IMG/VR virus record: IMGVR_UViG_3300008267_000027
Coordinates: 1 to 64,000 of that record
DNA from: a virus
Direction: 5' to 3' (one strand)
DNA: 64,000 nt
This document shows positions 4,510 to 24,408 of the stretch, piece after piece (within the stretch, counting starts at the first letter, position 1; the number at the start of each line of letters is the position of its first letter). The position numbers and the translations under genes are program-made. The notes beneath the pieces are model-generated. The model was given only the letters and a program-made list of their open reading frames with translations, was not told the DNA's origin and searched no databases.

Positions 4510-4983
4510 ATGATACAAAAACTATCTAGACCTAGTGTTTTTTCAAGTCCTTCTGTAAGCATGTCTCCTGGACATGTAGGATCAGAAAGTTCAGCTATGG
4601 GTCCTGTTTGCTCACAGTGCGCAGCTCTAGGAAATGAACTTATGAATGCAGCAACAAGTTTTCACAAGTTGCATTTAAAAGTAACAGGTATTGGATCTTA
4701 TGCTTCTCACAAGGCTCTTAATGAGCTTTATGATGCTCTTCCAGGTCATGCTGATGATCTTATTGAAGGTTATCAAGGTGCTGCTGAGAAGATACTAGAA
4801 CTTCCTAATACAATGCCTAGAACTTTAAATTCAGTAGAAGATGCTCTTAGTTATTTGAGAGAACTTTGTACACAAGTAGATTCATTACAAGCTGTAATGC
4901 CTTACAGTCAAATAGTTAATGATCTTGATAATGTTAAAAGTACTATAGATGGAGTGAAGTATAAACTTCTCTTCTTAAAATAA
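4510..4983 (+). CDS. Ferritin/Dps-like protein (DUF5856-like)
   Basis: FHKLHLKVTG..SYASHKALNELYD...DDLIEGYQG resembles the Dps four-helix ferroxidase signature. Confidence 0.75.
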   Translation: MIQKLSRPSVFSSPSVSMSPGHVGSESSAMGPVCSQCAALGNELMNAATSFHKLHLKVTGIGSYASHKALNELYDALPGHADDLIEGYQGAAEKILELPNTMPRTLNSVEDALSYLRELCTQVDSLQAVMPYSQIVNDLDNVKSTIDGVKYKLLFLK

Positions 4984-7408: not shown

Positions 7409-8785
7409 ATGACTCCTATTAAATCTAACTTAAATAAGGATAATTGTTCTCCAATATCCTCTAATTGTGTCCTATGGCAAGGACCTGATATTTCATGTAT
7501 TGGTCTGTGTTCAGGTGATACAGTTTCTGAGGTGACGTATAAACTAGCTGTAGAAATATGTGCTATAAAAGAAGAACTAGGGCTGTCAGATTTAGATATC
7601 AAATGTTTAGTTGATAACTGTCTAACATGTCCAGATCCTGAAAAAACTTTAGGAGTGGTATTGCAGCTTTTAATTAATAAAGTTTGTAATATTCAAGAGA
7701 TTGTTGACCAGTTTGGAGCAGGGTCTGCTGATGAAGTGGAAGTTAGACTTGCTCAATGTTTTTTAGTTGACTTTACAGACAGCAATGGAGATATTACAAA
7801 CCCAGTTCCTGTATCGAGTTATGTTCAAAAAATAGCACAAAAAATCTGTTCAATTCTTACAAAACTAGATGACTTAGATGGTTCTATTGTAAGTTTAGGT
7901 GATGATATTACAAATCTAGAAACAAGAGTTGATACTCTTGAGAATGCTGGTGAATTAACTATTGTTCCTACATGTACGGGTACAGCAGTAGCTACAGCAA
8001 TTGATGTAGCTGTATTTAACTTAGAACAAAAGTTTTGCAATCTTCAAACTGTTACAGGTCTCCCTGAAGAACTTATTTTAGTATTAGATAAAGAATGCAA
8101 GTTTTCAACACCTCCAGGATATGTTGCTAGTTTAGCTACTCCAGGAACAAGCTTGTGGAATCCTAATGATTTATCTTCTACAATTGCTGATACACTTAAT
8201 AAAATGTGGTTAGCAATTTGTGACTTAAGAGGTGCTGTTAAATTTATACAAGATTCATGCTGTCAAATTAGTTGTGATGATCTAATTGTTGACTTTGATG
8301 TTAAACGTACAGTGGATGATCAAGGTAATCTTATTCTTAAATTGTTTTTCTTTCCTAAGACTAACATTCCAGGTACATGGTATGATTGTGATCAAACACC
8401 TAATGCAATTCAACCTTATGGATTCCAAGGAACTAAGTTTACAGTAACTGATACTTTTGGTAATCAATTTGTTCAATATGTACAGCTTAGAGATCAAACG
8501 CTTCAAACTGGTGTATTAAACGATCCTGCATACTATAATGATGGATATATATTTGAGATTAGCAATAGTGCATTAGATCAGTCTACAGACTTTAGTATTG
8601 ATTCTAATGTATGTATCACTGACGGAACTAATAAGTGTGTCAAGTGTTTAGTTAAAAATGTACCTTATGTTCCAGTTGCTTCAGGATGTTGTACAATTAC
8701 TGCTCTTGAAGATGAAGTGACAATTGTCTACAGATATTGTCCTGTACAGATTACAACAACTACAACCACTGTTTCAATAGGATAA
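7409..8785 (+). CDS. Cys-rich fibre/adaptor protein with coiled coil and C-terminal Thr tract
   Basis: 458 aa; N-terminal CVLWQGPDISCIGLCSGDTVSEV module; LDDLDGSIVSLGDDITNLETRVDTLE heptads; ends ITTTTTTVSIG. Confidence 0.7.
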   Translation: MTPIKSNLNKDNCSPISSNCVLWQGPDISCIGLCSGDTVSEVTYKLAVEICAIKEELGLSDLDIKCLVDNCLTCPDPEKTLGVVLQLLINKVCNIQEIVDQFGAGSADEVEVRLAQCFLVDFTDSNGDITNPVPVSSYVQKIAQKICSILTKLDDLDGSIVSLGDDITNLETRVDTLENAGELTIVPTCTGTAVATAIDVAVFNLEQKFCNLQTVTGLPEELILVLDKECKFSTPPGYVASLATPGTSLWNPNDLSSTIADTLNKMWLAICDLRGAVKFIQDSCCQISCDDLIVDFDVKRTVDDQGNLILKLFFFPKTNIPGTWYDCDQTPNAIQPYGFQGTKFTVTDTFGNQFVQYVQLRDQTLQTGVLNDPAYYNDGYIFEISNSALDQSTDFSIDSNVCITDGTNKCVKCLVKNVPYVPVASGCCTITALEDEVTIVYRYCPVQITTTTTTVSIG

Positions 8786-8804
8786 TAATAAAAAAATAAA
8801 TAAT

Positions 8805-9229
8805 ATGGCATCAACAATACCTTCCGTACCATGTGCTCCTGACAATTTGAAGAAAATGGAATTGGTCTTGGTAATCAGACTCAGCTTTATGAAAAAAATA
8901 ATAATTATATCAATGGTATAAAAATTAATGATATATATTATGGACTATCTCAAATAGATGGTAATACTGGTAATTTTACTCAAAGTAATTTACAAAGTGC
9001 TATAAATAATGCTGTTGGTGATGGTATAATTAATGTAATTGAAGTACTTTATGATGATGATGATGCTACCAATGCATGGCGAGGATGGACTTACAGAATA
9101 ACTATTCGTGTAGTTTCTTCAATAGGAGATAGCTTAGAGTTATGTGGATACACTTCTATAGTTGGTAGTAATTTTGAAGATACAGGTGGTAATTCAATAA
9201 ACTATTGTTTACCCACTATCAAAATATAA
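8805..9229 (+). pseudogene. Frameshifted gene (or sequence error), distant paralog of 9241..9873
   Basis: ATG 8805 reads MASTIPSVPCAP; a start-less 128-codon frame (8843-9226) continues in the -1 frame; LQSAINNAVGDGII resembles LAHAINNIGDYNI of the next gene. Confidence 0.65.
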
Positions 9230-9240
9230 AATAAATAAAT

Positions 9241-9873
9241 ATGGCAACTTGTTTAGTAACAGTAGGTGGTACATATGGGGAAGTGCTTATTAAGTATGTA
9301 GACTCAGGGTCTACACCACATTCTTTGATTAGTGGTCCTGGAACTTTCTATTTAGATGATACTGGTTCTGATTACACCTATAGTGTAGTTTATGGAGATG
9401 TTACTGTAACATCATTATGTATTACTTTTACAAATCTACCATATGTTTGCTATGTTATAAATTGGGGAAATAGTTTAGGTAAATCCTTACTATCTCAATT
9501 TAAAGTTCAATCTATCATTGCTGGTAGCTTAGAATATAGCTTGTATATACCAACAGACATGGTTTTGTCTAGTACTTTAGCACATGCTATAAATAATATT
9601 GGAGATTATAATATCACTTGTCAATCTTTTAAACACCCTAATCAAATTATAGTTAAAACACTTACGCCTGATGTTCCGTATATTAAACTTAGCGATAGTG
9701 CTACTAGTTTTAATATATATTTAAAAGGTCAAGCGGTTGCTAATTGTGTACCATCAGATTTTGAACAAATGGATGTATGGCCTAATATACCAGCAACTAC
9801 AACCACAACTAGCACTACTAGTACAACAACATCATCAACAACAACTACCACTACTGTGGTACCAATACCATAA
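9241..9873 (+). CDS. Putative virion surface protein with C-terminal Thr/Ser tract
   Basis: 210 aa; beta-rich; ends PATTTTTSTTSTTTSSTTTTTTVVPIP. Confidence 0.75.
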   Translation: MATCLVTVGGTYGEVLIKYVDSGSTPHSLISGPGTFYLDDTGSDYTYSVVYGDVTVTSLCITFTNLPYVCYVINWGNSLGKSLLSQFKVQSIIAGSLEYSLYIPTDMVLSSTLAHAINNIGDYNITCQSFKHPNQIIVKTLTPDVPYIKLSDSATSFNIYLKGQAVANCVPSDFEQMDVWPNIPATTTTTSTTSTTTSSTTTTTTVVPIP

Positions 9874-9878
9874 TAATT

Positions 9879-10112
9879 ATGTCTTGTACATGTATTAATC
9901 AATGCGGAGATCTTTGCACATGTTGTGTTCCAGATGGAGTTACAAACCTTCCTCAATGTGAACCATTAGAAGGTCCTTGTGCTGGTACAGAAATAGATAT
10001 CAATTGTATTGTTTATGATGGTCCAAGTTATGAATGTTTAGGAATACAAACTGGTGATAATTTACTAGATGTATTAATGATTATTTTTCACAGGTTAAAC
10101 CCTTTATGTTAA
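9879..10112 (+). CDS. Small Cys-rich protein consisting mostly of the shared docking-like module
   Basis: 77 aa; CIVYDGPSYECLGIQTGDNLLDVL. Confidence 0.75.
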   Translation: MSCTCINQCGDLCTCCVPDGVTNLPQCEPLEGPCAGTEIDINCIVYDGPSYECLGIQTGDNLLDVLMIIFHRLNPLC

Positions 10113-12124
10113 TGTGTCCTATTTGCGGTTGTAATAGAAGTATAAATACATGTTCTTGTGCTTACCTTCCTTGCACAACAACTACTACTATAGGGTTTAC
10201 GCAATATGACTGTGATGGTTCTCCAGCAGACTTAGCTATAGATTCTGAGTGTGTTGTGTATAGCAGTCCTTCTCTACCTTGTTTTGGTATATTACAAGGA
10301 TCTAGTTTTACTGAAATCATTACAGAACTTGTAGGACAAGCTGGTAATTGTACACCAAATCCTCCAGGTGCTACAACAACAACCACACGTCCTCCTACAA
10401 CTACAACAACGACCACACTACCTCCTTGCGTTGTATATAAAGTAACTAATACAAATCTTTTTGGGTCAAGTACTATTAGATACACCCCTTGTAATACAAC
10501 AAGTAATAGACCAGTAACAGTTGGTGCAATTCCTATATATATTTGTCATAATACAAATTATCCTGTTACTACTATATCAGGAAGTGTTCAGTTACAAAAC
10601 AGAGGTGAATGTAATGATCCTGCTCCGACAACTACTACGTCAACTACAACAGCTGCACCTGAAACAATCTGTTTTAAATTAAGAAATACATTTAGAAATA
10701 CATCTGTAGAAGTTGACTTTATTAATTTGTTAGGGGTTGCTGATACATTATCATTAGATCCTCTTGAGATTAGACATAAGTGTGCATTAAGTGTTACACC
10801 TACATATGGTCTTTTAATAGAACAACTTGGAGATTGTTTGTCTGGATGTGTCACTCCAACAACTACCACAACTAGTACGTCTACAAGTACAACTACAACG
10901 TCTACATCTACCACTACATCTACTTCTACTACCACTACAACAACACTATGTTCTGAACCTGAGTGCGCACGCGTGATGTTATCTGGTTCAGTAAAAGCGT
11001 ACACCTATGATTTCTGTAGTAATCAAACACAAGAAGTTGCAATACCAAACTTTAGTAGCATTGTTAACCATGGTATAGCTGTTAATAATGAATATTTATG
11101 GTCTATAAGATCTGGTAAGTTTTCTAGATGGGAACTTGATTATCTTCCATTCTCTGCAACATATGATGCTGATGTATTATATCCAGCAGGATTTAATCCT
11201 ATAAATCCAACATTTAATAATGGTATTGTTGCTAAAACTAATACAGGTCATACACTTATAGGATGGAATAATACTGATTTAGAGTTTGTTGAAATAAATG
11301 CTTCAGGACCTACAGCATCAATTACAAGCAAATTTGACTTTGGTACACCTTCATCACCTAGTGATCAAAGATACCCTATTGGTAATCCTTTGTATACAAC
11401 AACTGGTAAATTTATAACATTAAGTAGGAAAGTTAATGGTAGATACCACTTCACTCAGTTTGATTATGATGGTGTTCCAGGAACAATTGAAAATGATATT
11501 GACATAACTATATCAAATAAGGTACCTATTGCATTATTACAACCTACATGTAGCTGTGAATGTTCAATATATGTTCTTTACTATTCATATTCTCCTACAG
11601 TTGGTGGTGAGTGGACTCCTATTGGAAATCGTCTTTTGTATTCATTAAATCTTACAACAGGAGCTCTTACATTAGTGCAAACTCAGTTTGTTCCTTCTAG
11701 TATATTAGTTAATGGAGGTGGTGCTCAATTACCTGCATGCATGTTGTGTGATGGAGAAATATTCCCCACCACTACCACAACAACTGCTGCCCCAACTACT
11801 ACTACTACATCTACTAGTACAAGTACAACTACGACCACAACAGCTGCTCCTGCATATTTCTATTTTGCAGATGTTTATAACTGTCAACTACCATTTCCTC
11901 AGAACTGTATGAAACAAGGGGAAGCTATTGTGATGGGTGAATTTGGTGGACCATTAAGTATAGGATTATTTTATAATGAAACTGGTTCTTCACCTGGTCT
12001 AGGTCTTATATATGAAATTAAAGGGGTGGCACCTAATCAACAATTTGCAGTACAAGTTAGTGAGTTATTTGGATCATCAAGTTGTTCAGAAGCTTGTAGT
12101 TTTGTTTCAGAACCTGAACCTTAA
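10106..12124 (+). CDS. Cys-rich mucin-like fibre protein with putative beta-propeller
   Basis: 672 aa (start may be 10112, TAATG overlap); five poly-Thr linkers separating small Cys domains; propeller-like region paralogous to 12145..15180. Confidence 0.75.
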   Translation: MLMCPICGCNRSINTCSCAYLPCTTTTTIGFTQYDCDGSPADLAIDSECVVYSSPSLPCFGILQGSSFTEIITELVGQAGNCTPNPPGATTTTTRPPTTTTTTTLPPCVVYKVTNTNLFGSSTIRYTPCNTTSNRPVTVGAIPIYICHNTNYPVTTISGSVQLQNRGECNDPAPTTTTSTTTAAPETICFKLRNTFRNTSVEVDFINLLGVADTLSLDPLEIRHKCALSVTPTYGLLIEQLGDCLSGCVTPTTTTTSTSTSTTTTSTSTTTSTSTTTTTTLCSEPECARVMLSGSVKAYTYDFCSNQTQEVAIPNFSSIVNHGIAVNNEYLWSIRSGKFSRWELDYLPFSATYDADVLYPAGFNPINPTFNNGIVAKTNTGHTLIGWNNTDLEFVEINASGPTASITSKFDFGTPSSPSDQRYPIGNPLYTTTGKFITLSRKVNGRYHFTQFDYDGVPGTIENDIDITISNKVPIALLQPTCSCECSIYVLYYSYSPTVGGEWTPIGNRLLYSLNLTTGALTLVQTQFVPSSILVNGGGAQLPACMLCDGEIFPTTTTTTAAPTTTTTSTSTSTTTTTTAAPAYFYFADVYNCQLPFPQNCMKQGEAIVMGEFGGPLSIGLFYNETGSSPGLGLIYEIKGVAPNQQFAVQVSELFGSSSCSEACSFVSEPEP

Positions 12125-12144
12125 TAATAAAAATAGTAATATAA

Positions 12145-15100
12145 ATGTCTTGTAATTGTAAAAATACATTCCCAAATCAAACTTGTTGTTGTCCTAAAAC
12201 ACCAACTACTACCACTACGTTATCTCCTGAAGATTTAGCTAATCAAGAGTGTACACAAGTGTTTGGGTCAAGTTCTATAATTTACAATAATACATTATAT
12301 ACTAATTTAGGTTTACCTGATTGTTTAGGTATACGTCCAAATCCTACTATTACAGAAATCATCACTGCTATTGTTGGTACATTTCCAGAGTGTATTCCTA
12401 CAACTACAACCACTACAACAAGACCTACAACTACTACAAGTACAACAAGACCTGCTACCACAACTAGTACCACTACACAGTTTCCTTGTGTGAGTGGGGT
12501 GTGCCCTTCTGGTTATATTTGTGTTGATGATATATGTGTACCTAACATTTGTGATACAACTATAGATTGTCCTTCAGGTTATGTCTGTATCAATGGTACA
12601 TGTTTGCCAGCATGTGAAGATGATGTAGATTGCCCAAGTGGATATGAGTGTATAGATGGAGCATGTCAAATTCCTTGTGATGATGAAAACTGTCCTATAG
12701 GTTTTACATGCATTAATGGGGTTTGTGAACCATCACTTTGTAGCATTGATATAGATTGTCCTATAGGATTTATATGTGTTAATGGTAATTGTCAACCTGA
12801 TGATTGTGATGAATATGGAAACTGTCCTCCTGGATATATTTGTGTAGACGGTAATTGTATATCAGATGATTGTGATAATACTGTGGATTGTCCATCTGGT
12901 TATATCTGTATAAATGGTAATTGTGTACCTAATGTATGTGAGACAACTGTTGACTGCCCAAGTGGATACATTTGTATTGATGGTGAATGTCAACCAAATG
13001 TGTGCAATGAAGAAGTAGAATGCCCTAGTGGATACACTTGTGTAAACGGAACTTGTGTTCTTCTTAATTCACCTTGTAATTCATATTCTGTAAATACATC
13101 TGCAAATTGTACATATCAAACATATAATAATTTAGGGTCTAGTACTGATTTTGAAGCTCCTGAACCTACATGTGGTAACTATTTAGGAAACTCTGTTTGG
13201 TTTACAGCAATTGCACCTCCTAGTGGTCAACTTGTAATAAGTCTTCAAGCTGGTACAATTACAGATGCTGCAGTAGCTGCTTACACAGGATCATGTACAC
13301 TGCTTACTCAAATAGGTTGTTCAGATGATCAAAGTCCGCAAGCAATGATGCCTGAGTTGGTGTTAACAGGTTTGACACCAGGAGCAACTATTTTTATTAG
13401 AGTGTGGAGTTATGGTAATCAACAATCTGGTACATTTGGATTGTGTGTAATAGATCCTACATTGAATCCTTGCTCTATAACAGGTATAGCATCTGGTATA
13501 TCTTGTATAACTACAACAACAACAGTTCCACCTCAAGTGGTACCATCTTGTGGAGTTTTATACAACTCTTATTACTACTATGAAGAGGATGGTATTAAAA
13601 GAGGATCTACATTATACTATTATAATTTTAATACCAATACAGCAACAGTTCTCCCTGTACCTGGAGCGACAGGTCCTAACACACCAACTTATCTTGATAT
13701 AGCTAGTACAGCAAATAAACTTTGGTTTGTAGATACAGTAGGTTCTAAATTTATTGAATATGATATTTCATTATCACCGTGGAATGCAATATTTAGTCAA
13801 AACATACCATTCCCTGCAGGATTTGTATCCTCTGGAGGATTGTTTGCGATTAATAATAACACTCTTTTAGTTGTTAATGAAAATACAGGAACTCCTATTG
13901 TTTCAGAGTTTAATGTTTCAACCAATGTTATTACGCCTAAGTTTGCACTACCATCTAATAGAAAGGTTGCAGGTGATATTTTATTAACAACAAATAATAA
14001 ACTTATTGTTACTACTGCTAGTAAAACTACTAGTGACAGATGGATCAGTCAGTATAATTATACCACTTACACATTAGAGTTTGATAAGTCTATAAACATT
14101 GCTATACCAGGTCCTGCTATATCAAATCCATGGGGATTGTTTGAAACTGGTGGTAACATCTATATAATGGATAAGTTGACAGGTGTTTATAGAATAAACA
14201 AAACATCTCCTTATGCTATTACATTCATAGGCGTACCTACAGGGTCAAGTGTTCATGACACTATAATGGGAGCTTCTCAAACACGTAGTTGTATTACAGA
14301 TTCATTCACACCAAATATTACTACCACTACTAGTACGTCTACATCAACTACTACCACTTCTACATCAACTACAACTACTACAACAGAGGCTCCTTTTGTA
14401 GAGCAATCTCGCTCTATGAATGATTGGGAAATATTTTCTACTTGTGGTATAAATCCATCTGGTGTATGGGATGACCCTCCTGTACCATATGATAAAATAT
14501 TTATAGGTACAAGTAGTGAGCCTTGTGGTGCTTGCTCATGCATTTCATTTGTACATGGTTCAGCACAAGGTGACGATCCTTTAATTAAATCAGTTTGGGA
14601 AGCTAACGGTAACTGTAATGGTGAATGTTTTGTAAACTGTGCAGATAATTGGACCACTGTTAACTTAAATACAGACAGATATGCAAATGGTGATTTGATA
14701 CCTCAAGTAACAAACCCTACTACATGGGCTAACTTAACTACAGGAGCATGGTGTTACTATGCTAATAGTACAGCAAATGGTACTATTTATGGTAAACTAT
14801 ATAATCGTTATGCTTTAACAGACCCTAGAGGATTGCAGTTACCAGCTGGGTATAGACTACCTACTACAGTAGATTGGACAAATTTAATAAATTGTGTAGG
14901 TGGTCATGGATATTATCTACAAAAAATAAATGATCCATTATGGATATTCATTGATGAAAATGATAGACCTTATGGTGCTGCTCGTACTACTTTTAATGCA
15001 CTACCTGGTGGTTATAGATCAAGTTCAGGAAACTTTGCTGACATTGGAGATTATGCTCGTTTTTGGACACTTGATGGATTTACACGTGTTAGTTTGAGAG

Positions 15101-15180
15101 GAAGAGTCCCAGAGGGAGTTCAAACAAATGGTGGAATAAATCCTAAAACAGGACTATCAGTTAGATTAATACAAATTTAA
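12145..15180 (+). CDS. Multidomain adhesin-like fibre protein: Thr tracts, 9 Cys repeats, beta-sandwich, propeller, C-terminal Fibrobacter succinogenes major paralogous (FISUMP) domain
   Basis: C-terminal WTTVNL..DRYANGD.IPQV..W.NLTTGAWCYY...YGKLYN...PAGYRLPT..DW...FNALPGGYR matches the FISUMP pattern. Confidence 0.75.
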   Translation: MSCNCKNTFPNQTCCCPKTPTTTTTLSPEDLANQECTQVFGSSSIIYNNTLYTNLGLPDCLGIRPNPTITEIITAIVGTFPECIPTTTTTTTRPTTTTSTTRPATTTSTTTQFPCVSGVCPSGYICVDDICVPNICDTTIDCPSGYVCINGTCLPACEDDVDCPSGYECIDGACQIPCDDENCPIGFTCINGVCEPSLCSIDIDCPIGFICVNGNCQPDDCDEYGNCPPGYICVDGNCISDDCDNTVDCPSGYICINGNCVPNVCETTVDCPSGYICIDGECQPNVCNEEVECPSGYTCVNGTCVLLNSPCNSYSVNTSANCTYQTYNNLGSSTDFEAPEPTCGNYLGNSVWFTAIAPPSGQLVISLQAGTITDAAVAAYTGSCTLLTQIGCSDDQSPQAMMPELVLTGLTPGATIFIRVWSYGNQQSGTFGLCVIDPTLNPCSITGIASGISCITTTTTVPPQVVPSCGVLYNSYYYYEEDGIKRGSTLYYYNFNTNTATVLPVPGATGPNTPTYLDIASTANKLWFVDTVGSKFIEYDISLSPWNAIFSQNIPFPAGFVSSGGLFAINNNTLLVVNENTGTPIVSEFNVSTNVITPKFALPSNRKVAGDILLTTNNKLIVTTASKTTSDRWISQYNYTTYTLEFDKSINIAIPGPAISNPWGLFETGGNIYIMDKLTGVYRINKTSPYAITFIGVPTGSSVHDTIMGASQTRSCITDSFTPNITTTTSTSTSTTTTSTSTTTTTTEAPFVEQSRSMNDWEIFSTCGINPSGVWDDPPVPYDKIFIGTSSEPCGACSCISFVHGSAQGDDPLIKSVWEANGNCNGECFVNCADNWTTVNLNTDRYANGDLIPQVTNPTTWANLTTGAWCYYANSTANGTIYGKLYNRYALTDPRGLQLPAGYRLPTTVDWTNLINCVGGHGYYLQKINDPLWIFIDENDRPYGAARTTFNALPGGYRSSSGNFADIGDYARFWTLDGFTRVSLRGRVPEGVQTNGGINPKTGLSVRLIQI
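12487..13056 (+). repeat. Nine tandem ~21-22 aa Cys4 repeats
   Basis: C-x4-5-C-P-x-G-[YF]-x-C-[IV]-[ND]-[GD]-x-C, counted nine times. Confidence 0.9.
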
Positions 15181-15197
15181 AATTAAGATATATTTAA

Positions 15198-17576
15198 ATG
15201 TCAAAACAAATATTCATACAAGTATCTGCTCCTCCAGGATCTGGACCATTTAATTTATATACAAATTTAGATTATGTAACTCCTTTTGCTAATGTAATTC
15301 TACCTCAGTTGACAGGGGGTTACTATGCTACAGTTGCTGATAATGTTACAATCATTAAAATTGAACCCACTGGTACATGCACCACTCCAATATATGTATC
15401 TATTGTATGCGATGTAACAACTACAACAAGTACATCTAGTACTACAACTACAACCATACCACCGACTACTACAACATCTACATCTTCATCTACCACTACT
15501 ACAACTACACATCCTCCTTGTATGCGTTATAGTGTAAGTCTTACATCAGGAGATGAATTGACATATTCATATACAAATTGTTTAAATCAGGATCAAATTA
15601 GAATTCTTACTGATCCTATTGTTTATTTTTGCGCATACTATCCACCAATTATATTGGATGGTGTTGGTGTTGTTGCTTTAGTATCAGTGTGTGGTGCTAC
15701 AACAACTACGTCATCTACTAGTTCAACTACAACTACTACAATACCAGGTTTAACAACTACAACTACAATACCTGGAACAACTACTAGTACATCAACAAGC
15801 ACTAGCACATCAACTACAAGTACTAGTAGTACAACCACTTCTACTAGTTCTTCAACTACAACAACTACTAAACCTATATATACAACTAGTACAACTTTAC
15901 CTCCTACTACAACTACTACAATTCCTGTAGGTACAACAACTACTTCAACTATATCTGGTAGTACTACTACCACCACTATACCAGCAAGCACTACTACAAC
16001 TACTACATTTGGAGGCACAACAACCACCACTACTGTAAAACCTTTACCTACTACTACAACTACTACAATAGCAACATCTCCTTATGATTGTACATGCTAT
16101 ACATTAAGTAGTGAGTCATTAACTGGAGCTGGGTATACTGTATTTGAATATGTAGATTGTGCAACTAGTCTTTTGACATTAACAGATGAAATTTTTAACA
16201 ATAGCGTTAATATTTGTGCTCAAACAGGAACTGTTGGTATTGATTTTAATAGTAAAGATGCTGAATGGAATATTCAATATACAGGAGGAACAGCTGCAGA
16301 ATGTAGTGAAACTGTAGATTGTAATCCTGTATTAAGTTGTACATGTCATACTATTGGTGTACTTCAACCAGGTAGAGTTAATTTTATATTTACGGATTGT
16401 AATAGTGAAGAGCAGACTATTCAAATAAATGTTGTAGAAGATGAATTTTTAAATTGGATACCCGTCTTTAATAATATATGTGTTGCTTCAGGTACAAGTA
16501 TAATTATTGGTAAAGTTACTGGAGACCCTGATACTATTGTAACTAATAATAATGTACCTTGTACAAATGGTGTAGAAGGTGACACATGCCTAAAATCTCA
16601 ATGTTATACTTTATATAATATAGGAGAAATTCCTGAAACAGGTACTTCTACAGTTACTTATACTTATTGGGGTGTTGATGGTATTTTCTATACACAAATA
16701 TTAAACTATCAAGATGTATTAACAGTTTGTTCACAAACTTATCCAGAGTTTACAGAACAAGGATATGGGTTAGGTCAAATTCAAACTTCTGGAGAATATT
16801 GTGATGTGGAAATACCATGTGAACCTGTTAAATATTGTAATTGTGTAGTTGTAACAGTTAAAGGAGATCCTGTGTCTGTAACATATAAATCATGTGAAAC
16901 AGGTATTGATACTACTGTAACTCTTGGAAATGGGTATGATTCAGTATTAGCAGCGTGTATGAATGGTTATCCTACTATTGGTGCACATGGTATTGGTACT
17001 GAAGTTATTGTAGATGTATCAAAAGATTTGTGTTCTACAAATGCAGATTGTAATACATGCAACTGTGTTACAGTTACTCAGGCTAAACCTAGTACAGCAA
17101 TTGGAGTTTATTATAAAGAGTGTGGCACATTTGATAATGCTTATGGTTTAGTGCCAGAGCTTGCACTAAAAACTACATTTACAGCATGTATGTCTAACGC
17201 ATATGCTCCATTAATCTGGAATGAAACAGATAATGTAGAAGCAATAGAAAATGATGATTATGTTATAAGTACATCTGGTTCATGTCTTACTACTAATGAT
17301 TGTTTACCTACCACTACAACTACAACTAATGCTGAACAAACATATTATTACTATGAGGTAATACCATTTGATGGAGAAACCTGTGATAATATAGGTGAGA
17401 CAACTTACATAATGAGATCTACTACACCTATTTCATTTGCATTTGTCAATGCTGATGGTGGTTGTTATCGAATTATTGGTGTAGTTAGTGGTCCAACTTA
17501 TAGCCTAACATATAGCGGATCAGGTGGTAATGTTCCATGCTTCGGTTTTGGACCCATCCTTGACATGGTTTGTTAA
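15198..17576 (+). CDS. Mucin-like Cys/Thr-rich virion surface protein
   Basis: 792 aa; very long Thr/Ser/Pro tract and tandem small C..Y...Y..C...C domains. Confidence 0.75.
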   Translation: MSKQIFIQVSAPPGSGPFNLYTNLDYVTPFANVILPQLTGGYYATVADNVTIIKIEPTGTCTTPIYVSIVCDVTTTTSTSSTTTTTIPPTTTTSTSSSTTTTTTHPPCMRYSVSLTSGDELTYSYTNCLNQDQIRILTDPIVYFCAYYPPIILDGVGVVALVSVCGATTTTSSTSSTTTTTIPGLTTTTTIPGTTTSTSTSTSTSTTSTSSTTTSTSSSTTTTTKPIYTTSTTLPPTTTTTIPVGTTTTSTISGSTTTTTIPASTTTTTTFGGTTTTTTVKPLPTTTTTTIATSPYDCTCYTLSSESLTGAGYTVFEYVDCATSLLTLTDEIFNNSVNICAQTGTVGIDFNSKDAEWNIQYTGGTAAECSETVDCNPVLSCTCHTIGVLQPGRVNFIFTDCNSEEQTIQINVVEDEFLNWIPVFNNICVASGTSIIIGKVTGDPDTIVTNNNVPCTNGVEGDTCLKSQCYTLYNIGEIPETGTSTVTYTYWGVDGIFYTQILNYQDVLTVCSQTYPEFTEQGYGLGQIQTSGEYCDVEIPCEPVKYCNCVVVTVKGDPVSVTYKSCETGIDTTVTLGNGYDSVLAACMNGYPTIGAHGIGTEVIVDVSKDLCSTNADCNTCNCVTVTQAKPSTAIGVYYKECGTFDNAYGLVPELALKTTFTACMSNAYAPLIWNETDNVEAIENDDYVISTSGSCLTTNDCLPTTTTTTNAEQTYYYYEVIPFDGETCDNIGETTYIMRSTTPISFAFVNADGGCYRIIGVVSGPTYSLTYSGSGGNVPCFGFGPILDMVC
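15698..16067 (+). repeat. Long poly-Thr/Ser/Pro (mucin-like) coding tract
   Basis: About 120 codons dominated by ACN with mixed third positions; units such as TTTTTIPG, TTTTTIPV, TTTTTIPA. Confidence 0.9.
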
Positions 17577-17623: not shown

Positions 17624-18544
17624 ATGAAATTTATTTGTGCACAACCTGCCATAAACTACTATACATGGCAGGTGGAAGTGATGATTAACAACTTTATTAA
17701 AAATGGGATAAATCCTAATGACATACATATACTGTGTGCATATTGGGATGAGGTTCCTGAAAACTGGAGAGTAATTCAAAAAACTTACAATACAGTTGGA
17801 TTTTATTTTTATAAAGATACCAGACAAGACCAGTCTTATATTCCCTCTATATACTTTAATATTTTAAAGCAGCATATACAAGCTAATCCTGAATTAGAAA
17901 AGACTGCTTTATTTCTTCATGACTCTGATATTATATTTACAAAACCTGTAAATTTTAGTAGTATGGAGCATGATAAGATTTGGTATCTAAGTGATACTGT
18001 TGGGTATATAGGGACTCAATATATTCTAACAAAAGGTGAAGAAGTTTATAGAGGAATGTGTAATGTAATAGGAATAGACCCTTTGATTCCTAAACTATTA
18101 AATAGTAATTCTGGCGGTGCTCAACATATAGTAAAAAATACTACATATGAGTATTGGGATAAAGTTGAGAAAGACTCTATAAAACTTTATCAACACTTTA
18201 ATGATACAGAACCTGAGTGGAAGGGTGAAGGTTATCCTATTCAGAAATGGACAGCTGGTATGTGGAGTCTATTATGGAATGCATGGTTGTTTGGTCATGA
18301 AACTAAAGTGGATAAAAGACTAGATTTCTGTTGGGCTACAGATCCAATGCACAGATGGGATGAAGCACCTATATTTCATAATGCAGGTGTAACAGATGAT
18401 AGAAAAGATCTTTTCTTTAAGGGAGCTTATATAGATAAAAATCCTTATACAGAAGTTAAACTAGATATGTATAGTAAAGACAAGTGTTCTTATAATTATG
18501 CAAAAGAAATTATTGAGACGTCTAAAAAAACATGTCTGTTATGA
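17624..18544 (+). CDS. GT-A glycosyltransferase resembling peptidyl O-glycosyltransferases (GT95/GT96, HPAT/SERGT-like)
   Basis: Likely start ATG 17624 (306 aa); NYYTWQVEVMINNF, LHDSDIIFTKP (DxD), GGAQHI, KWTAGMWSLLW, IFHNAG. Confidence 0.65.
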   Translation: MKFICAQPAINYYTWQVEVMINNFIKNGINPNDIHILCAYWDEVPENWRVIQKTYNTVGFYFYKDTRQDQSYIPSIYFNILKQHIQANPELEKTALFLHDSDIIFTKPVNFSSMEHDKIWYLSDTVGYIGTQYILTKGEEVYRGMCNVIGIDPLIPKLLNSNSGGAQHIVKNTTYEYWDKVEKDSIKLYQHFNDTEPEWKGEGYPIQKWTAGMWSLLWNAWLFGHETKVDKRLDFCWATDPMHRWDEAPIFHNAGVTDDRKDLFFKGAYIDKNPYTEVKLDMYSKDKCSYNYAKEIIETSKKTCLL

Positions 18545-20274
18545 GTTTAGAAATACTAAGCGGTATTTATGGAAGTGCTAGAAATGGGTCTAAAGATGTA
18601 ACAGATATACTTAGATCGTATATTAAAAATGATAGTTTAAATCTTTATGTATCTAATGGGATTTTTGGTGATCCTTGTCCTGGACACTTTAAATCTTTAT
18701 ATCTTAAGTATAAAGAACACGGTGTGTATAAAGAAAATTCTTGGGAAGAAGAGTCTAGTCTTAGATTGAACTCATTTAAAAAGACATTTTCTGTAATAAT
18801 AGGGTTTAGAAATTCTATTCCAGATAGACTTAGAAATTTAGTATACACTATTAAATATTACAAAAAGCACTTACCAGATTGTACTGTTATAGTAGTTGAA
18901 CAAGATAGTAGGGCCGATTTAAGTGAGGTGTATGATTACATAGATAAGTATGTTCATATAAATACAGGAAATGATTTTTATTCAAGGTCTTTAGGTTTTA
19001 ATCAAGGTTTTAATGTAAGCAATAGTGATTATGTTATTTTAGCTGATGGGGATTGTTTATTAGATGTTAACTTTTTAAATAATATACACGACTATTATGC
19101 TGAGTTTGATAGCTTGTTTGTAATACCTTATGTAAATCCTGTGTATTATTTATCTAAAGAAGAGACTGAAAGTTTTATTTTAAATAATGAAGACAACACA
19201 GGAAGTAATAAACATAGAAAAACAAACGCTTTAACCAATGCTTCTGGTGGTGTTGGTATAATAAGTTCTGATAATTTTTATCGTGTAGGGGGGTTTGATC
19301 AAAGATTTAGAGGATGGGGTGTTGAAGATGACGCTTTTCACAATAAGTGTGTAATGTTTAATTTAACATCCATACGATTAGGTGGGCAAATGGTACATCT
19401 ACATCACGCTGATTCTTTTAAAGGAAATGATAACTATGGTAATAATGTATCTATTTATGATAATGACTACGGTAAAAATAACGCTATAGATATTGTAAAT
19501 AGAATAGGGTTTACACATTTATCAAAAAATGTTGATGTTAGTAGAATAAAAATAGTGACAAACTCTCAACATGACGAGTTGTTAGAACTATCAAAACAAT
19601 TTTATTCTGATTTACCTTTTGAAATTATAAATGTATCTGGTAAAACAGGAATGTATGGGTATCAGTTCTTTGACCATGTTATAAAAACATTTACAGATGT
19701 AGATTGGATAATCTATATTGATGAGGATTGTTTTATAACAAATAAGAGTGCATTAATGGATCTTTTATATTATCAAATTAGACATAATATAGGATTTTCA
19801 GGGATGCCTGATGGAGGGGTTATAAGTCATAGATTTCACAACCCTGTTTCTATAAATGCATTCTTTACTATAATTAACTTAAAAAAATTAAGAGAGGAGA
19901 CTTTGAATCTAAAAGGATACTCTCACTATGCTAAAGATTTAGATAAATTTATTCCATATAACTTAATTAAAAAAGGATATGAGAATACCCCTGTAACAGA
20001 AAAAATAATTAATGAAGGTAACATACCATATGGTGTATCATATGATAACTTTGAACCTTATTATTCTATATTTTTCTCAGCATTAAGAAAAGGATTAACG
20101 CCTTTATATTTAGATGCTTATGATTATTCTGGAGATGAATATAGCACAGTGTTAAAAAATCATTTAGGTGTTGAGTTTGCTTATCACTCATGGTTTTCTA
20201 GAGGTTGGAATGATCCATATCATAAAGAAAGAATTAAAAAACTGATTGACTATTGTTTAACAATAAAACAATAA
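18532..20274 (+). CDS. Tri-domain glycosyltransferase: SUEL-like lectin + GT2/GT7-like + second GT-A domain
   Basis: IYGS...VSNGIFGDPCPGHFKSLYLKY; SVIIGFR, ILADGDCLL, GGFDQRFRGWGVEDD; WIIYIDEDCFI. Confidence 0.8.
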   Translation: MSVMSLEILSGIYGSARNGSKDVTDILRSYIKNDSLNLYVSNGIFGDPCPGHFKSLYLKYKEHGVYKENSWEEESSLRLNSFKKTFSVIIGFRNSIPDRLRNLVYTIKYYKKHLPDCTVIVVEQDSRADLSEVYDYIDKYVHINTGNDFYSRSLGFNQGFNVSNSDYVILADGDCLLDVNFLNNIHDYYAEFDSLFVIPYVNPVYYLSKEETESFILNNEDNTGSNKHRKTNALTNASGGVGIISSDNFYRVGGFDQRFRGWGVEDDAFHNKCVMFNLTSIRLGGQMVHLHHADSFKGNDNYGNNVSIYDNDYGKNNAIDIVNRIGFTHLSKNVDVSRIKIVTNSQHDELLELSKQFYSDLPFEIINVSGKTGMYGYQFFDHVIKTFTDVDWIIYIDEDCFITNKSALMDLLYYQIRHNIGFSGMPDGGVISHRFHNPVSINAFFTIINLKKLREETLNLKGYSHYAKDLDKFIPYNLIKKGYENTPVTEKIINEGNIPYGVSYDNFEPYYSIFFSALRKGLTPLYLDAYDYSGDEYSTVLKNHLGVEFAYHSWFSRGWNDPYHKERIKKLIDYCLTIKQ

Positions 20275-20438: not shown

Positions 20439-21635
20439 ATGAATCTATTTGAACAAGTAAAAAAGTCTTTGAAGTGGAAACAATCTAATCACTTCTGTGC
20501 TTCAAAATTAGGTATTTCAGTTGACAAATACATTGAAATGAAAAAACTTGTCAATCTTCAAGGAACTGTAGGTGAAGTTAAAAACAAAGTTGTAGAAAGA
20601 AAAGAAAACCTTGAGAATGGTACAGCTGAAATAAAAGGGTTTGCTATCTCTGAACCTAGAACAGCTGAAGAGATTATAGAACTTTTAAAGATAGATACTA
20701 CTAAATGGAAACTATCTAGCTACTGGAATAAAGAAACACATAGTGGATGGATGGTTTCTGCTATGGTAACAGCTATTAAAAAAGAACAAACAGATATATT
20801 AGCTGAAGTGATAGCTAATTTAAATCCTATATGTCAGGTTGAAACTGACGCTCAGTATATAAATGATAGCTTTGAGAGTGATAATGTAGGAATTATATCT
20901 ACACAAGACCTTCATTTTGGTAAAGAAGATAATGAAGATATTACAGAAAATTTTAAAGCAGCTATTAGCAGTCTTGTACGTAGGGCTTATATGTCACACA
21001 AGATGGATAAGATAATCTATGTAATAGGAGGAGATCTTCTTAATATGGATTCATTCTCTGGTGCTACTACATCAGGTACTCCTGTAGACAATAGTATGAA
21101 AGCGCAGGATGCTTATAAACAAGCTTTTGATGCACTACTATGGTCTATCATCTTTATTAAGAAATACTGTGAAAACTTGCATGTAGTTTATGTTCCAGGT
21201 AATCATGATAGACTTAGTTCCTATCATATAGCTCATGCTCTATCTAAATGTTTTGACGCTGAAGATTATAGTATATACTTTGATGTAGAGTATGCAGAGA
21301 GAAAAGTTGTGGTATATGGTCATAACTTTTTTGCTTTTGAGCATGGTGATGTTACCAAAAAGAATACAGCTTTAGTATATGCTACAGAGTTCCCTAAATC
21401 TTGGGGAGGTACTAAGTATCGCACTTGTTATACAGGGCACTTTCATTCTAAGAAAACTATAGAATACACTACAGAGAATGAGTATAACGGATTCTCTATC
21501 AAGCACTTACCTAGTCTATGTTCTACAGACTACTGGCACTACCATAACAAATACGTTGGTTCTAAACGTCAAGCTATCATGGAGATACATGATATTGAGA
21601 AAGGGAAGGTTTCAGAGTTTATATATACCGTATAA
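20439..21635 (+). CDS. Calcineurin-like metallophosphoesterase with N-terminal extension
   Basis: DLHFG, GGDLLN, PGNHD, EHGD and GHFH motifs in canonical order. Confidence 0.85.
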   Translation: MNLFEQVKKSLKWKQSNHFCASKLGISVDKYIEMKKLVNLQGTVGEVKNKVVERKENLENGTAEIKGFAISEPRTAEEIIELLKIDTTKWKLSSYWNKETHSGWMVSAMVTAIKKEQTDILAEVIANLNPICQVETDAQYINDSFESDNVGIISTQDLHFGKEDNEDITENFKAAISSLVRRAYMSHKMDKIIYVIGGDLLNMDSFSGATTSGTPVDNSMKAQDAYKQAFDALLWSIIFIKKYCENLHVVYVPGNHDRLSSYHIAHALSKCFDAEDYSIYFDVEYAERKVVVYGHNFFAFEHGDVTKKNTALVYATEFPKSWGGTKYRTCYTGHFHSKKTIEYTTENEYNGFSIKHLPSLCSTDYWHYHNKYVGSKRQAIMEIHDIEKGKVSEFIYTV

Positions 21636-22292: not shown

Positions 22293-22967
22293 ATGGCAAC
22301 TACTATTGGAGAAGTAATTTCTAGAATCCGTAACCAGCTTAAAGCTGTTAAACAAGATCCCTTCTTAACAGACAGATACATATACAGTCTTATATCTAAG
22401 CATGCTCATTGGTTGATGAAGAGAGAAGACTCTAAGAATAAACTGATGAAGTTTAGTTCTGTAATACAAACTCTTGGAAATATAGAACTAATTGAGATTG
22501 ATAAAGTGGAAGCATGCTGCACAAATGCAAAATCAAACTGCACAATTAAAAGAACTAAAGAGAAACTTCCTGCTTTCATGCAAGGATACTATGGACCTTT
22601 GATTAGGTCTGTTTCTTCTTTAGATGGTTCTCAGTTGGTTAAAGCAACCAACCCTAGTATTTATGTGTCAATGACCCACTCTACAAGTTTTAAATACAAC
22701 AAAACAAAATACTTTTGGTATTTGAATGACTATCTTTATTTTCCAGATTTAGACTGGGATGCTGTAAAGATAGAGGGTATATTTGAAGATGATATTACAT
22801 CTTTTAACTGTGATCCTAATGATGATTGTACAGTGAGACAAGAACAACTGTTTAATGTTCCTGAGTATCTACATGGAGAAATTGAAAGTAATGTAATTAA
22901 AGACTTCGGATTAACTCTTCAAATACCAGGTGATAAAACTTCTGATAAACAACATATACTAAGATAA
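22293..22967 (+). CDS. Putative tail ring protein
   Basis: 224 aa; TIGEVISRIR...LTDRYIY, YFWYLNDYLY, VKIEGIFED; position. Confidence 0.6.
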   Translation: MATTIGEVISRIRNQLKAVKQDPFLTDRYIYSLISKHAHWLMKREDSKNKLMKFSSVIQTLGNIELIEIDKVEACCTNAKSNCTIKRTKEKLPAFMQGYYGPLIRSVSSLDGSQLVKATNPSIYVSMTHSTSFKYNKTKYFWYLNDYLYFPDLDWDAVKIEGIFEDDITSFNCDPNDDCTVRQEQLFNVPEYLHGEIESNVIKDFGLTLQIPGDKTSDKQHILR

Positions 22968-22968
22968 A

Positions 22969-23199
22969 ATGGCAACAAATTACAAAACTTATATTATAAT
23001 TGACTTCACCCATGATGAGTATGGGTTCGTCAATAATAACTCTGATATCAAAAAGTTTTATGCTGATTTAAATATCAACATAGCAACTCTTCCTACAGAT
23101 AGCAATGGTTATCTGAGTCAAGCTATTTTGGTAAATCCTAAAACTAAAGAGGAGTCTAAAATATTATTTAAATATGGCACAGCATTGTGCATTAATTAA
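22969..23199 (+). CDS. Hypothetical protein
   Basis: 76-aa ORF filling the gap between the ring genes. Confidence 0.6.
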   Translation: MATNYKTYIIIDFTHDEYGFVNNNSDIKKFYADLNINIATLPTDSNGYLSQAILVNPKTKEESKILFKYGTALCIN

Positions 23200-23204
23200 T
23201 TACA

Positions 23205-24038
23205 ATGACTGAATTAAAATATAAAACATTTAATCAACTTTTAAGTGAGGTGTTAATTGATTTTTACACTTTTAACTTAGAGGGTATGATTGATCCAGCT
23301 CAGCTTATTAAAGTAACTTTAAGAGTTAACTATGAGTTGGGTCTTAGAATTCATAAATCTAAAGATGTCATACTAGAACTTGATCATGGTAAATGTAAAT
23401 TACCAGATGATTTTTATGTTTTAAATTATGCTAATCTTGTAGGTAAATATACTGTACAAGACCCAGTTATATCAGGTTCTCACGTAGAAGATGTTATTTT
23501 AGAGACAGTTCCTGAAAATGGTTCATGCTGTAAAGTGAATGCGTGCAAATCAAGTTGCGGTCAATATTATAACTTAGTTCAAAGTTTAAGATCTGAAGTA
23601 AGAACTTATGAGGAGTTTTATCCTTTACAAGTTGGTAAGGCTAAGGTAGTATCTGAAGATTGCCCAAATCTCCAAGTTAAGTCTACAAATCAAGCACAAA
23701 TTAGAGATGGTTTTATTTTTACTAATCTTAATGAAGGTAAAATCCATATGAACTATATAGGTAATATGGAAGATGATGAGGGTAATTTGTTAGTATTAGA
23801 TCACCCTTTGATTAATGAATTTTATGAGTATGCTCTAAAACAAAGAATTTTAGAAAACCTTTTAATCAATGGTGAAGATGTAACATCAAGAGTTCAACTT
23901 ATAGAACAAAGAATGAGAGCTGCTAGAAATAATGCACTATCTCTAGTAAACACTCCAGACTATGCTGAAATGCAAAAACTTTGGGAAACTAATAGAAAAG
24001 CAATGTATGGAAAATACTACAACATGTTTAAGCGATAA
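23205..24038 (+). CDS. Putative tail ring/tubular protein
   Basis: 277 aa; KCKLPDDF, GFIFTNLNEGKIHMNY...DDEGNLLV; lies just upstream of the muzzle gene. Confidence 0.65.
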   Translation: MTELKYKTFNQLLSEVLIDFYTFNLEGMIDPAQLIKVTLRVNYELGLRIHKSKDVILELDHGKCKLPDDFYVLNYANLVGKYTVQDPVISGSHVEDVILETVPENGSCCKVNACKSSCGQYYNLVQSLRSEVRTYEEFYPLQVGKAKVVSEDCPNLQVKSTNQAQIRDGFIFTNLNEGKIHMNYIGNMEDDEGNLLVLDHPLINEFYEYALKQRILENLLINGEDVTSRVQLIEQRMRAARNNALSLVNTPDYAEMQKLWETNRKAMYGKYYNMFKR

Positions 24039-24408
24039 ACCTGCAAAATACTCTAAGAGTATAAAATTGCCAACATACAATTGTGAGCTTATGGTTATAA
24101 TTACCAGTAAGCTAAAAGATGATGCAACTAAGATATATAAAAAATATAAGATTAAAGATGATGATGAGGATGGTGAAAGTGAAGGAATAGTTATTAGTCC
24201 AGATATAGATAAGTATTTTTTAATGATTGATTTAAAATACCTATCTCATAATACACTAGCCCATGAGATATATCATGCTACAGTGAGAATAACAGAGGAT
24301 AGAGGTATTGTAGAAGAAGAAAGTCAAGCATGGTTATGTGGACATCTCACTGGTGTTATATATAAATTTTTAGATAAAAAGACATTGACAATTAAACATG
24401 GCGGATAA
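24007..24408 (+). CDS. Small HExxH metallopeptidase-like protein
   Basis: TLAHEIYHAT followed by EEESQAWL (zincin-like third ligand); start uncertain (23962 or 24007). Confidence 0.6.
   Translation: MENTTTCLSDKPAKYSKSIKLPTYNCELMVIITSKLKDDATKIYKKYKIKDDDEDGESEGIVISPDIDKYFLMIDLKYLSHNTLAHEIYHATVRITEDRGIVEEESQAWLCGHLTGVIYKFLDKKTLTIKHGG

Follow-up and report, generated by a model that had tools for sequence, protein, structure and literature searches.

Within the first 64,000 nucleotides of the IMG/VR virus record IMGVR_UViG_3300008267_000027 (one strand, read 5' to 3'; hereafter the window), we analysed a gene at positions 17624–18544, here called P0001, and propose that its product is probably an initiating peptidyl-threonine O-glycosyltransferase for virion proteins. 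P0001 belongs to PHROG 4417, a family listed with function unknown, and lies on a contig that we assign to a crAss-like phage because Pfam models for crAss ring 1, ring 2 and muzzle proteins match at 22293–29197 (CrAss_Ring_2, 1e-21; CrAss_Ring_1, 2.3e-9; crAss muzzle protein, 7.5e-26). In the mechanism that we favour, P0001 would be a soluble, cytoplasmic, metal-dependent glycosyltransferase (GT) with the GT-A fold, of the retaining (GT8/GT24-like) structural type, which during infection would use a nucleotide sugar made by the host to place the first sugar on threonine hydroxyls. The threonines concerned would be those in poly-Thr tracts of fibre-like virion proteins that the phage itself encodes, just upstream, at 9241–17576. 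The tandem two-GT-A enzyme of the overlapping gene, P0002, would next extend this glycan, giving a mucin-like sugar coat on the virion appendages of the phage. We propose the host as the source of the donor because the nucleotide-sugar gene models Epimerase and NTP_transferase gave no match in the 87-kb record. The gene and the positions within it to which the argument refers are as follows.

17624..18544, + strand: glycosyltransferase gene P0001, encoding a 306-amino-acid soluble GT-A protein of the PHROG 4417 family.
17654..17695, + strand: N-terminal motif NYYTWQVEVMINNF (amino acids 11-24, containing YYTWQ), in strand 1 and helix 1 of the Rossmann-like half.
17852..17854, + strand: codon for Tyr77, one half of the co-varying 77/212 pair.
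17921..17929, + strand: DSD (amino acids 100-102; D100 and D102), the DxD motif for metal and nucleotide-sugar.
18245..18277, + strand: KWTAGMWSLLW motif (amino acids 208-218), with G212 at nucleotides 18257-18259.
18377..18421, + strand: block H252-N-A-G ... F264-x-K266, with a putative third metal ligand and a putative phosphate-binding Lys.

The open reading frame (ORF) of P0001 runs from an ATG at 17624 to a stop at 18544; an in-frame TTG opens earlier, at 17570, and the start was placed at the ATG because homologues begin MKYICAQP. Residues 1–299 of the protein align to positions 1–291 of the 293 in the PHROG 4417 profile (E 5.7e-79), and a Pfam scan of P0001 returned no match. When the protein was used in a word-seeded search, 1857 matches were found, and all 120 that were listed are unnamed or called 'hypothetical protein'. 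The family comprises 979 clusters at 50% identity (E<=1e-3); it is carried by 77 GenBank phage records, from Lactobacillus, Enterococcus, Staphylococcus, Lactococcus, Clostridium, Chryseobacterium and Arcanobacterium phages, and on the bacterial side 134 species genomes out of roughly 186,000 have it, chiefly those of Bacteroidota and Bacillota. The nearest homologue in an isolated phage is that of Chryseobacterium phage MA9V-3 (45% identity), and within the 87-kb record the family gene is single-copy. The first-pass annotation of this DNA had placed P0001 in a family characterised mainly in eukaryotes, a description that found no support: PHROG 4417 is an independent and large family, carried by phages and prophages.

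An AlphaFold (AF2) model of P0001 built on 30 homologues (predicted local distance difference test score, pLDDT, 95.2; predicted template modelling score 0.92) has a GT-A fold with an intact DxD motif, in line with the initial identification of the gene as a glycosyltransferase. In this model the NYYTWQVEVMINNF region forms a strand (residues 2–8) and a helix (11–26), for which analogy with GT-A enzymes suggests a nucleotide-binding role, and the DSD motif comes right after a strand (96–99), the placement of DxD that is a feature of GT-A enzymes. The late block around H252 and K266 resembles H-x-x-G-x-x-K-P-W, which we take to be the late motif of GT8 and have matched to P0001 by fold similarity; the metal-binding and phosphate-binding roles given to these two residues are putative, by analogy. 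The three motifs on which the first-pass annotation rested, NYYTWQVEVMINNF, DSD and KWTAGMWSLLW, are all present in P0001, in the claimed order and in conserved columns of the family. In an alignment of P0001 with 150 cluster representatives (n=151, the basis of all residue counts given here), near-invariant residues included W15 (142), Q16 (139), D100 (149) and D102 (150), W209 (144), M213 (149) and W214 (148) in the third motif, and H252 (148), G255 (147) and K266 (148) in the late block, while Q167 was kept in at least 147. The conservation of D100, D102, Q167, H252, G255 and K266 is the pattern expected of a metal-dependent GT-A enzyme. P0001 has no membrane segment by hydropathy (maximum 19-residue Kyte-Doolittle mean 0.89).

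Compared with solved structures using Foldseek, the model was closest to UGGT, glycogenin and alpha-1,3-galactosyltransferase, with template modelling (TM) scores of 0.45–0.53 and identities of 8–12%, and its best matches belong to GT8, GT24 and GT6. P0001 is therefore similar in fold to enzymes of GT8 and GT24 (glycogenin, LgtC, Skp1 alpha-galactosyltransferase, the UGGT catalytic domain, GlyE) but distant from them in sequence, and it has no Pfam match to either family. Glyco_transf_8, the GT8 model, did not match P0001, and GT8 was absent from the families listed for its 30 closest homologues and from the first 25 of 78 listed for 118 wider relatives; GT24 likewise went unmatched in P0001 and the 30 homologues, and in what was listed for the 118 relatives. 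A search of BFVD returned a family member at TM 0.94 and Orf49 of Lactobacillus phage LP65 at 0.73, followed by GT8-like proteins at about 0.5, and because of this drop the predicted structures set the PHROG 4417 family apart from GT8 as a separate family. UGGT, glycogenin and alpha-1,3-galactosyltransferase are retaining enzymes. Since these are the fold neighbours of P0001, the enzyme is likely to retain configuration too; the model combines the features of the retaining GT-A class, namely the GT-A fold, DxD, a late His and retaining enzymes as closest solved neighbours.

The evidence on the acceptor comes from gene context, which we surveyed at 80 IMG/VR loci and 80 bacterial-genome loci of the family. 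At the IMG/VR loci, an ORF with a poly-Thr tract was found immediately upstream of the family gene (-1) in 60 of 79 cases, at -2 in 17 of 71 and at -3 in 11 of 60, as against none of 77 at +1 and none of 72 at +2. Overall, poly-Thr was present in 98 of 303 upstream ORFs versus 3 of 425 downstream. The bacterial-genome loci had the same polarity, with poly-Thr ORFs immediately before the family gene at 36 of 75 loci and immediately after it at none of 78. A GT gene inside a structural module, beside a protein with a low-complexity tract, is the layout of phage virion O-glycosylation, and in the window P0001 has the poly-Thr genes on one side and the genes for the crAss ring and muzzle on the other. 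In many phage lineages, the neighbouring genes indicate the poly-Thr tracts of virion proteins as the acceptor, and in this the earlier suggestion of protein-directed glycosylation held up.

Unrelated isolated phages that carry the family gene repeat the pattern: poly-Thr tails were seen at the C-termini of the tail-tube proteins of phiFL1A, phiCTP1, VPE25 and bIL285, of head proteins of PLE3 and of the 'major structural protein' orf13 of Lactococcus phage 1706, and in the myovirus Semele two small Thr-tract proteins are encoded near the family gene. A Pfam scan of 58 upstream proteins matched 3 (one as a tail tube, the other two through low-complexity matches). In VPE25 and bIL285 (loci L085 and L087) the GT gene does not adjoin the tail-tube gene, lying about 1.3-1.8 kb upstream of it, after the head genes. 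Adjacency of the GT gene and the poly-Thr gene is thus common but not obligatory, and poly-Thr ORFs at -5 and +5 in the bacterial-genome loci may reflect the VPE25/bIL285 layout.

A closer view of this linkage was given by one family of tail-tube proteins. Among 27 loci encoding homologues of the tail-tube protein of Enterococcus phage phiFL1A, 12 carry a poly-Thr tail, and the GT gene lies immediately downstream in 12/12; the remaining 15 have no tail, and the GT gene was found in 0/15 within the fetched flanks. A tree of the tail-tube core, built from 26 of the 27 rows (the truncated L114 was omitted), has four changes of the joint tail and GT state, at least two of them forced by well-supported branches. 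The poly-Thr tag and the enzyme have been gained and lost together, as predicted for an enzyme-substrate pair and as not required of a merely linked cassette.

These data bear directly on the possibility that the acceptor is not a protein, that the enzyme instead modifies teichoic acid, lipopolysaccharide or capsule precursors or phage DNA, and that the poly-Thr genes are mere fellow passengers on a mobile cassette. According to PMC12619734, the best-known activities of phage GTs are the glucosylation of DNA and the conversion of serotype, and the lipopolysaccharide enzymes LgtC and WbbM are among the GT8 relatives. Yet the family gene is embedded in structural modules, where it immediately follows the poly-Thr gene and in no case precedes it, the P0001 locus has no membrane segment or flippase-type partner, and linkage alone does not predict a tail on an essential tube protein that depends on, and in one tail-tube family tracks, the presence of the gene. 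We consider a non-protein acceptor very improbable. A DNA-modifying or serotype-converting GT as such was rejected on gene context.

Turning to the window itself, the genes upstream of P0001 encode the candidate acceptors, in which we counted Thr/Ser runs of >=5 residues as tracts.

15198..17576, + strand: 792-amino-acid Cys-rich protein directly upstream of P0001, with 13 Thr/Ser tracts (125 residues); proposed main acceptor.
12145..15180, + strand: 1011-amino-acid protein with 6 Thr/Ser tracts, DUF7107 repeats and a C-terminal Fib_succ_major domain; proposed acceptor.
10106..12124, + strand: 672-amino-acid Cys-rich protein with 7 Thr/Ser tracts; proposed acceptor.
9241..9873, + strand: 210-amino-acid protein with a 20-residue Thr/Ser C-terminal tail; proposed acceptor.
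7409..8785, + strand: 458-amino-acid Cys-rich protein ending in QITTTTTTVSIG, its tract being under the threshold; possible acceptor.

Taken together, these five genes (7409–17576), with Cys-rich products, contain 28 Thr/Ser tracts totalling 280 residues and written in mixed Thr codons, and apart from one marginal stretch the only strong tracts in the 64 kb are those of the ORFs at 9241–17576. The 792-amino-acid protein had no Pfam or PHROG match, and among all the poly-Thr proteins of the window the only annotations are Fib_succ_major and DUF7107. The 1011-amino-acid protein contains four Cys-rich DUF7107 repeats with the pattern CPSGY-C-x-G-C and matches Fib_succ_major at 9.3e-27, and to judge from its sequence it looks like an adhesin-type fibre. 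That these proteins are part of the virion is suggested by their location, flanked by genes of the capsid region on one side and by those for the crAss ring and muzzle on the other.

Several observations weigh against the proposal that P0001 glycosylates virion threonines. By sequence, the poly-Thr proteins of the window belong to no recognised virion-protein family. Nineteen of 79 viral loci have no poly-Thr ORF at -1, eight of 80 have none at all under the threshold used, in bacterial genomes the threshold is passed at -1 in less than half of the cases (the 36 of 75 given above), and the surveyed loci are phylogenetically related, so that raw counts overstate their independence. The retaining mechanism is suggested only by fold neighbours of a predicted model, and the acidic residue at position 212 of most relatives, absent from P0001, may be important for catalysis. 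Finally, we found no published glycan, mass shift or activity for any family member, and no paper on the family or on phage poly-Thr tracts in the open literature, a search that did not extend to subscription journals and supplements.

If poly-Thr tracts are the acceptor, P0001 might add the first sugar or a later one. The genes immediately downstream (+1) of the family gene vary: across 74 IMG/VR loci (L005–L084) they encode S-adenosylmethionine-dependent methyltransferases in 12, GT2 in 7 and GT6 in 5, more rarely Gly_transf_sug and cytidylyltransferase (2 each), and once each a GT11 fucosyltransferase-type, a GT29 sialyltransferase-type, a GT34 and a radical SAM/SPASM protein, which suggests that the glycans are very diverse. 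Further domains are also fused to the family domain itself: 73 of the best 150 representatives, out of the 979 clusters, exceed 450 amino acids, with the family domain mostly N-terminal in those listed, and a Pfam scan of 118 cluster representatives, the wider relatives referred to above (41 of them >450 amino acids), found other GT domains including GT2, GT25, GT29, GT6 and more. By contrast, in the whole genomes of the small siphophages PLE3, phiFL1A, 1706, bIL285 and phiCTP1 no GT2 or GT1 Pfam match was found, controls being positive in 14/14 genomes, and these five phages probably have no transferase other than the family member. That only one GT was found there fits an initiating enzyme. 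Glycan pathways are usually laid out with a first enzyme that is conserved and tailoring enzymes that vary, and the initiating role assigned to P0001 by the first-pass annotation is the one that we infer from these lone GTs and from a conserved gene that stands beside its presumed substrate with variable partners.

According to the contrary reading, P0001 would extend or branch a virion glycan whose first sugar is added by the host or by another phage enzyme. The closest solved folds do include enzymes that add sugars to existing glycans (UGGT, LARGE1, Skp1 alpha-galactosyltransferase and GlyE), and in the window a second, two-domain GT adjoins P0001. This reading sits poorly, however, with the five siphophage genomes that have no GT2 or GT1 match besides the family member, and with the finding that it is the family member that is the constant element beside the substrate gene while its partners vary. 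Moreover, the phage proteins are cytoplasmic, and in the cytoplasm we know of no general O-glycosylation of Thr tracts by the host; we hold an extending or branching role to be improbable.

In the window, extension of the glycan initiated by P0001 would fall to the second of these enzymes.

18532..20274, + strand: downstream partner P0002, 580 amino acids, overlapping the GT gene by 13 nucleotides; proposed glycan-extending enzyme.

P0002 consists of a small N-terminal beta domain followed by two GT-A domains in tandem, with Pfam matches to Glyco_tranf_2_2 (3.6e-14), Glyco_transf_7C (5.8e-11) and Glyco_tranf_2_4 (0.0033, amino acids 331-406) and a predicted model of pLDDT 79.9. In the PDB it best matches the chondroitin polymerase K4CP (E 1.4e-15), followed by heparosan synthase 2, and it also matches beta4GalT1. 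The model aligns with the Escherichia coli K4 chondroitin polymerase and Pasteurella heparosan synthase 2 over about 500 columns, but its TM score to these bifunctional polymerases is low, about 0.3, owing to a different arrangement of the domains, and identity is 12-14%. That P0002 polymerises a repeating chain rather than building a short glycan would be speculation from the modelled structure. The architecture is rare, with 20 database matches, and nine long forms of the family resemble its GT2 part in their C-terminal halves. As a conserved partner of the family gene, P0002 was rejected, a homologue being detectable at only 5 of 80 loci.

The first-pass annotation had also pointed out that Gly replaces Glu in the third motif of P0001. 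Relative to the family this is true, and the change is one of two. At position 212, 108 of the 151 aligned sequences have Asp, 18 Glu, 18 Gly and 3 Ser, with 4 other residues or gaps. Sequences with D212 have R77 in 108/108 cases and those with E212 have K or R77 in 16/18, whereas R77 accompanies G212 in only 1/18, the others having Tyr (7), Gln (3), Val (3), Gly (1) or a gap (3). G212 is specific to a subfamily and is invariant in the 30 closest homologues of P0001, all of which are Y77-F78-G212, while Glu is found throughout the subfamily of a relative termed P0252 and in phages MA9V-3, PLE3, phiFL1A and phiCTP1. In the aligned sequences, G212 is thus half of a coordinated loss of an R/K77-D/E212 charge pair, fixed in the subfamily. 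Loci of the G type nevertheless keep their poly-Thr neighbour, which lies at -1 in 40 of 55 (20 of 24 for D-type loci), and all 7 loci in which the GT ORF exceeds 400 amino acids, the fused forms, are of the G type.

Because G212 and Y77 are conserved, the other catalytic-looking residues are intact and the linkage to poly-Thr is kept, we favour a change of specificity over inactivation: the Y77-G212 swap, as judged from sequence, would retune the sugar pocket, altering fine specificity for donor or acceptor, and leave the enzyme active. If instead the subfamily of P0001 were a dead or repurposed pseudo-enzyme, for example a chaperone that binds poly-Thr, the loss of both D/E212 (present in 126 of 151) and its partner R/K77 would be readily understood. 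The other invariant residues are all kept, however, G212 and Y77 do not vary among 30 homologues with identities as low as 56%, and the poly-Thr neighbour is retained; G-type genes are also fused to further GTs or followed by them, as P0001 is by P0002, and extenders would be pointless where no first sugar is added. Of the readings weighed here, loss of activity seems to us the least probable.

The first-pass annotation had further proposed that P0001 resembles the hydroxyproline O-arabinosyltransferases (HPAT, GT95) and peptidyl-serine alpha-galactosyltransferases (SGT1, GT96) of plants and algae, from a motif order, Y-x-x-W-Q, DxD and W-x-x-E-M-[YW], that it attributed to these enzymes. P0001 carries YYTWQ, DSD and then WTAGMW, with Gly for Glu; its E-type relatives read WTAEMW, and W-[TC]-A-E-M-W, the form that the first-pass annotation gave for the plant enzymes, is the late motif of the P0252 subfamily as well as of the isolated phages of Firmicutes and Chryseobacterium. 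We used the Pfam HPAT model PF23452 (307 positions, curated cut-off 23.9 bits) as a proxy for CAZy GT95. It gave no match to P0001 at E<=1 or E<=10, and none to its 30 closest homologues, to 4 isolated-phage proteins or to 10 remote relatives. Among the 118 wider relatives, 3 were matched at E<=1, all under the cut-off, the best being P0252 itself (21.9 bits, E 1.3e-4, residues 9-242 aligned to profile positions 9-230 of 307). This alignment is colinear over nearly the whole domain and spans the YYxWQ, DxD and WTAEMW of P0252; within the P0252 subfamily, 1 of 50 members was matched. Among the families listed, HPAT was the only Pfam GT model on the family core domain at E<0.01.

In an embedding search, 22 of the 30 nearest named clusters carry PF23452 on about 10% of their members, a lead only, and DUF7164 (PF23741), also listed as a near neighbour, was absent from the hmmscan lists. 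A word-seeded search with P0252 gave 85 matches, all phage-type and none named HPAT, the family library search listed the best 150 of 979 clusters, among which a distant eukaryotic tail would not appear, a profile search against the PDB sequences was empty at E<=10, and no HPAT or SGT1 structure was described among the solved-structure matches listed for the P0001 model. The proposed kinship with GT95 is thus weakly supported: a colinear match under the cut-off in 3 of 118 relatives speaks for it, and the lack of any match for P0001 and its 30 closest homologues against it; the best solved structures are those of GT8, GT24 and GT6, as expected if there were no such kinship, yet it was HPAT, and not the GT8-type Pfam models, that matched relatives. 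A distant relationship of the PHROG 4417 family to GT95 is likely, while by sequence PF23452 does not place P0001 within it, and P0001 is a demonstrated member of none of GT95, GT96 and GT8.

According to PMC8012813, HPAT1-3 founded GT95, which is related to GT96 (SGT1), and HPATs are described as Golgi type II membrane proteins, whereas P0001 is soluble and has no such anchor; in PMC8476585, GT95 is predicted to have a GT-A-like fold and GT96 a novel one. The HPAT model and P0001 are of the same length class (307 positions and 306 amino acids). HPAT and SGT1 put the first sugar directly onto side-chain hydroxyls of repetitive low-complexity tracts (PMC8012813), which is what we propose for P0001. 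The acceptor in plants is hydroxyproline (GT95) or Ser (GT96), with L-arabinofuranose on hydroxyproline as the product of GT95 and alpha-galactose on Ser as that of GT96, whereas gene context suggests Thr for P0001, which is encoded by a bacterial virus and has Gly at the Glu/Asp position. P0001 would resemble HPAT/SGT1 and the mucin-type initiating enzymes in proposed function, GT8/GT24 in fold and the mycobacteriophage glycosylation systems in biology.

To our knowledge, phage virion glycosylation has so far been documented for a few mycobacteriophages, in work reportedly described by Freeman et al. in Cell Host Microbe in 2023. In these systems phage GTs act on capsid and tail-tube subunits, in their C-terminal portions (PMC12619734), and are accompanied by methyltransferases (PMC13313380), as are the family genes at 12 of the 74 loci described above. 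They differ from PHROG 4417 in that the acceptor signature of the latter is a pure poly-Thr tract, as predicted from gene context, and in that the family ranges over Bacteroidota, Bacillota and many uncultured phages. If our proposal is correct, a poly-Thr tract followed by a PHROG 4417 gene would be a simple sequence rule for virion glycosylation, and one enzyme family would predict glycosylated virions across hundreds of phage lineages, including phages of Enterococcus (VPE25, phiFL1), Lactococcus (1706, bIL285), Lacticaseibacillus (PLE3) and Staphylococcus as well as crAss-like phages. It would bear on adsorption to the host, on how therapeutic phages adhere to mucus and are recognised by the immune system and on the interpretation of cryo-electron microscopy density, and would offer glyco-engineering a Thr O-glycosyltransferase that is small, soluble and self-contained, together with a portable tag for its acceptors. 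If the link to HPAT also holds, the 'plant-specific' HPAT/SGT1 families would gain their first relatives in prokaryotic viruses. A far broader picture would make PHROG 4417 the phage branch of a GT95/GT96 superfamily, consisting of pan-phage cytoplasmic Thr O-glycosyltransferases that coat capsids, tubes and fibres, with the tag and the enzyme as a portable module, the 77/212 pair as a donor-sugar switch and, in this phage, a proteoglycan-like fibre polymerised by P0002; as a whole we regard this as rather unlikely.

Other genes of the window were recorded alongside these. A 157-amino-acid ORF among the capsid-region genes (4510–4983) matches phrog_858, 'starvation-inducible transcriptional regulator' (1.6e-20), and a 398-amino-acid ORF between the glycosylation and tail genes (20439–21635) matches phrog_704, 'DNA repair exonuclease' (1.7e-47), and weakly also Metallophos. 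The 654-amino-acid protein encoded at 34570–36534 matches Peptidase_M23 (4.1e-26) and is probably a virion-associated cell-wall hydrolase. Towards the end of the window, two giant ORFs follow one another on the + strand, at 41872–57396 (5174 amino acids) and 57403–63993 (2196 amino acids), the second ending seven bases before the window does.

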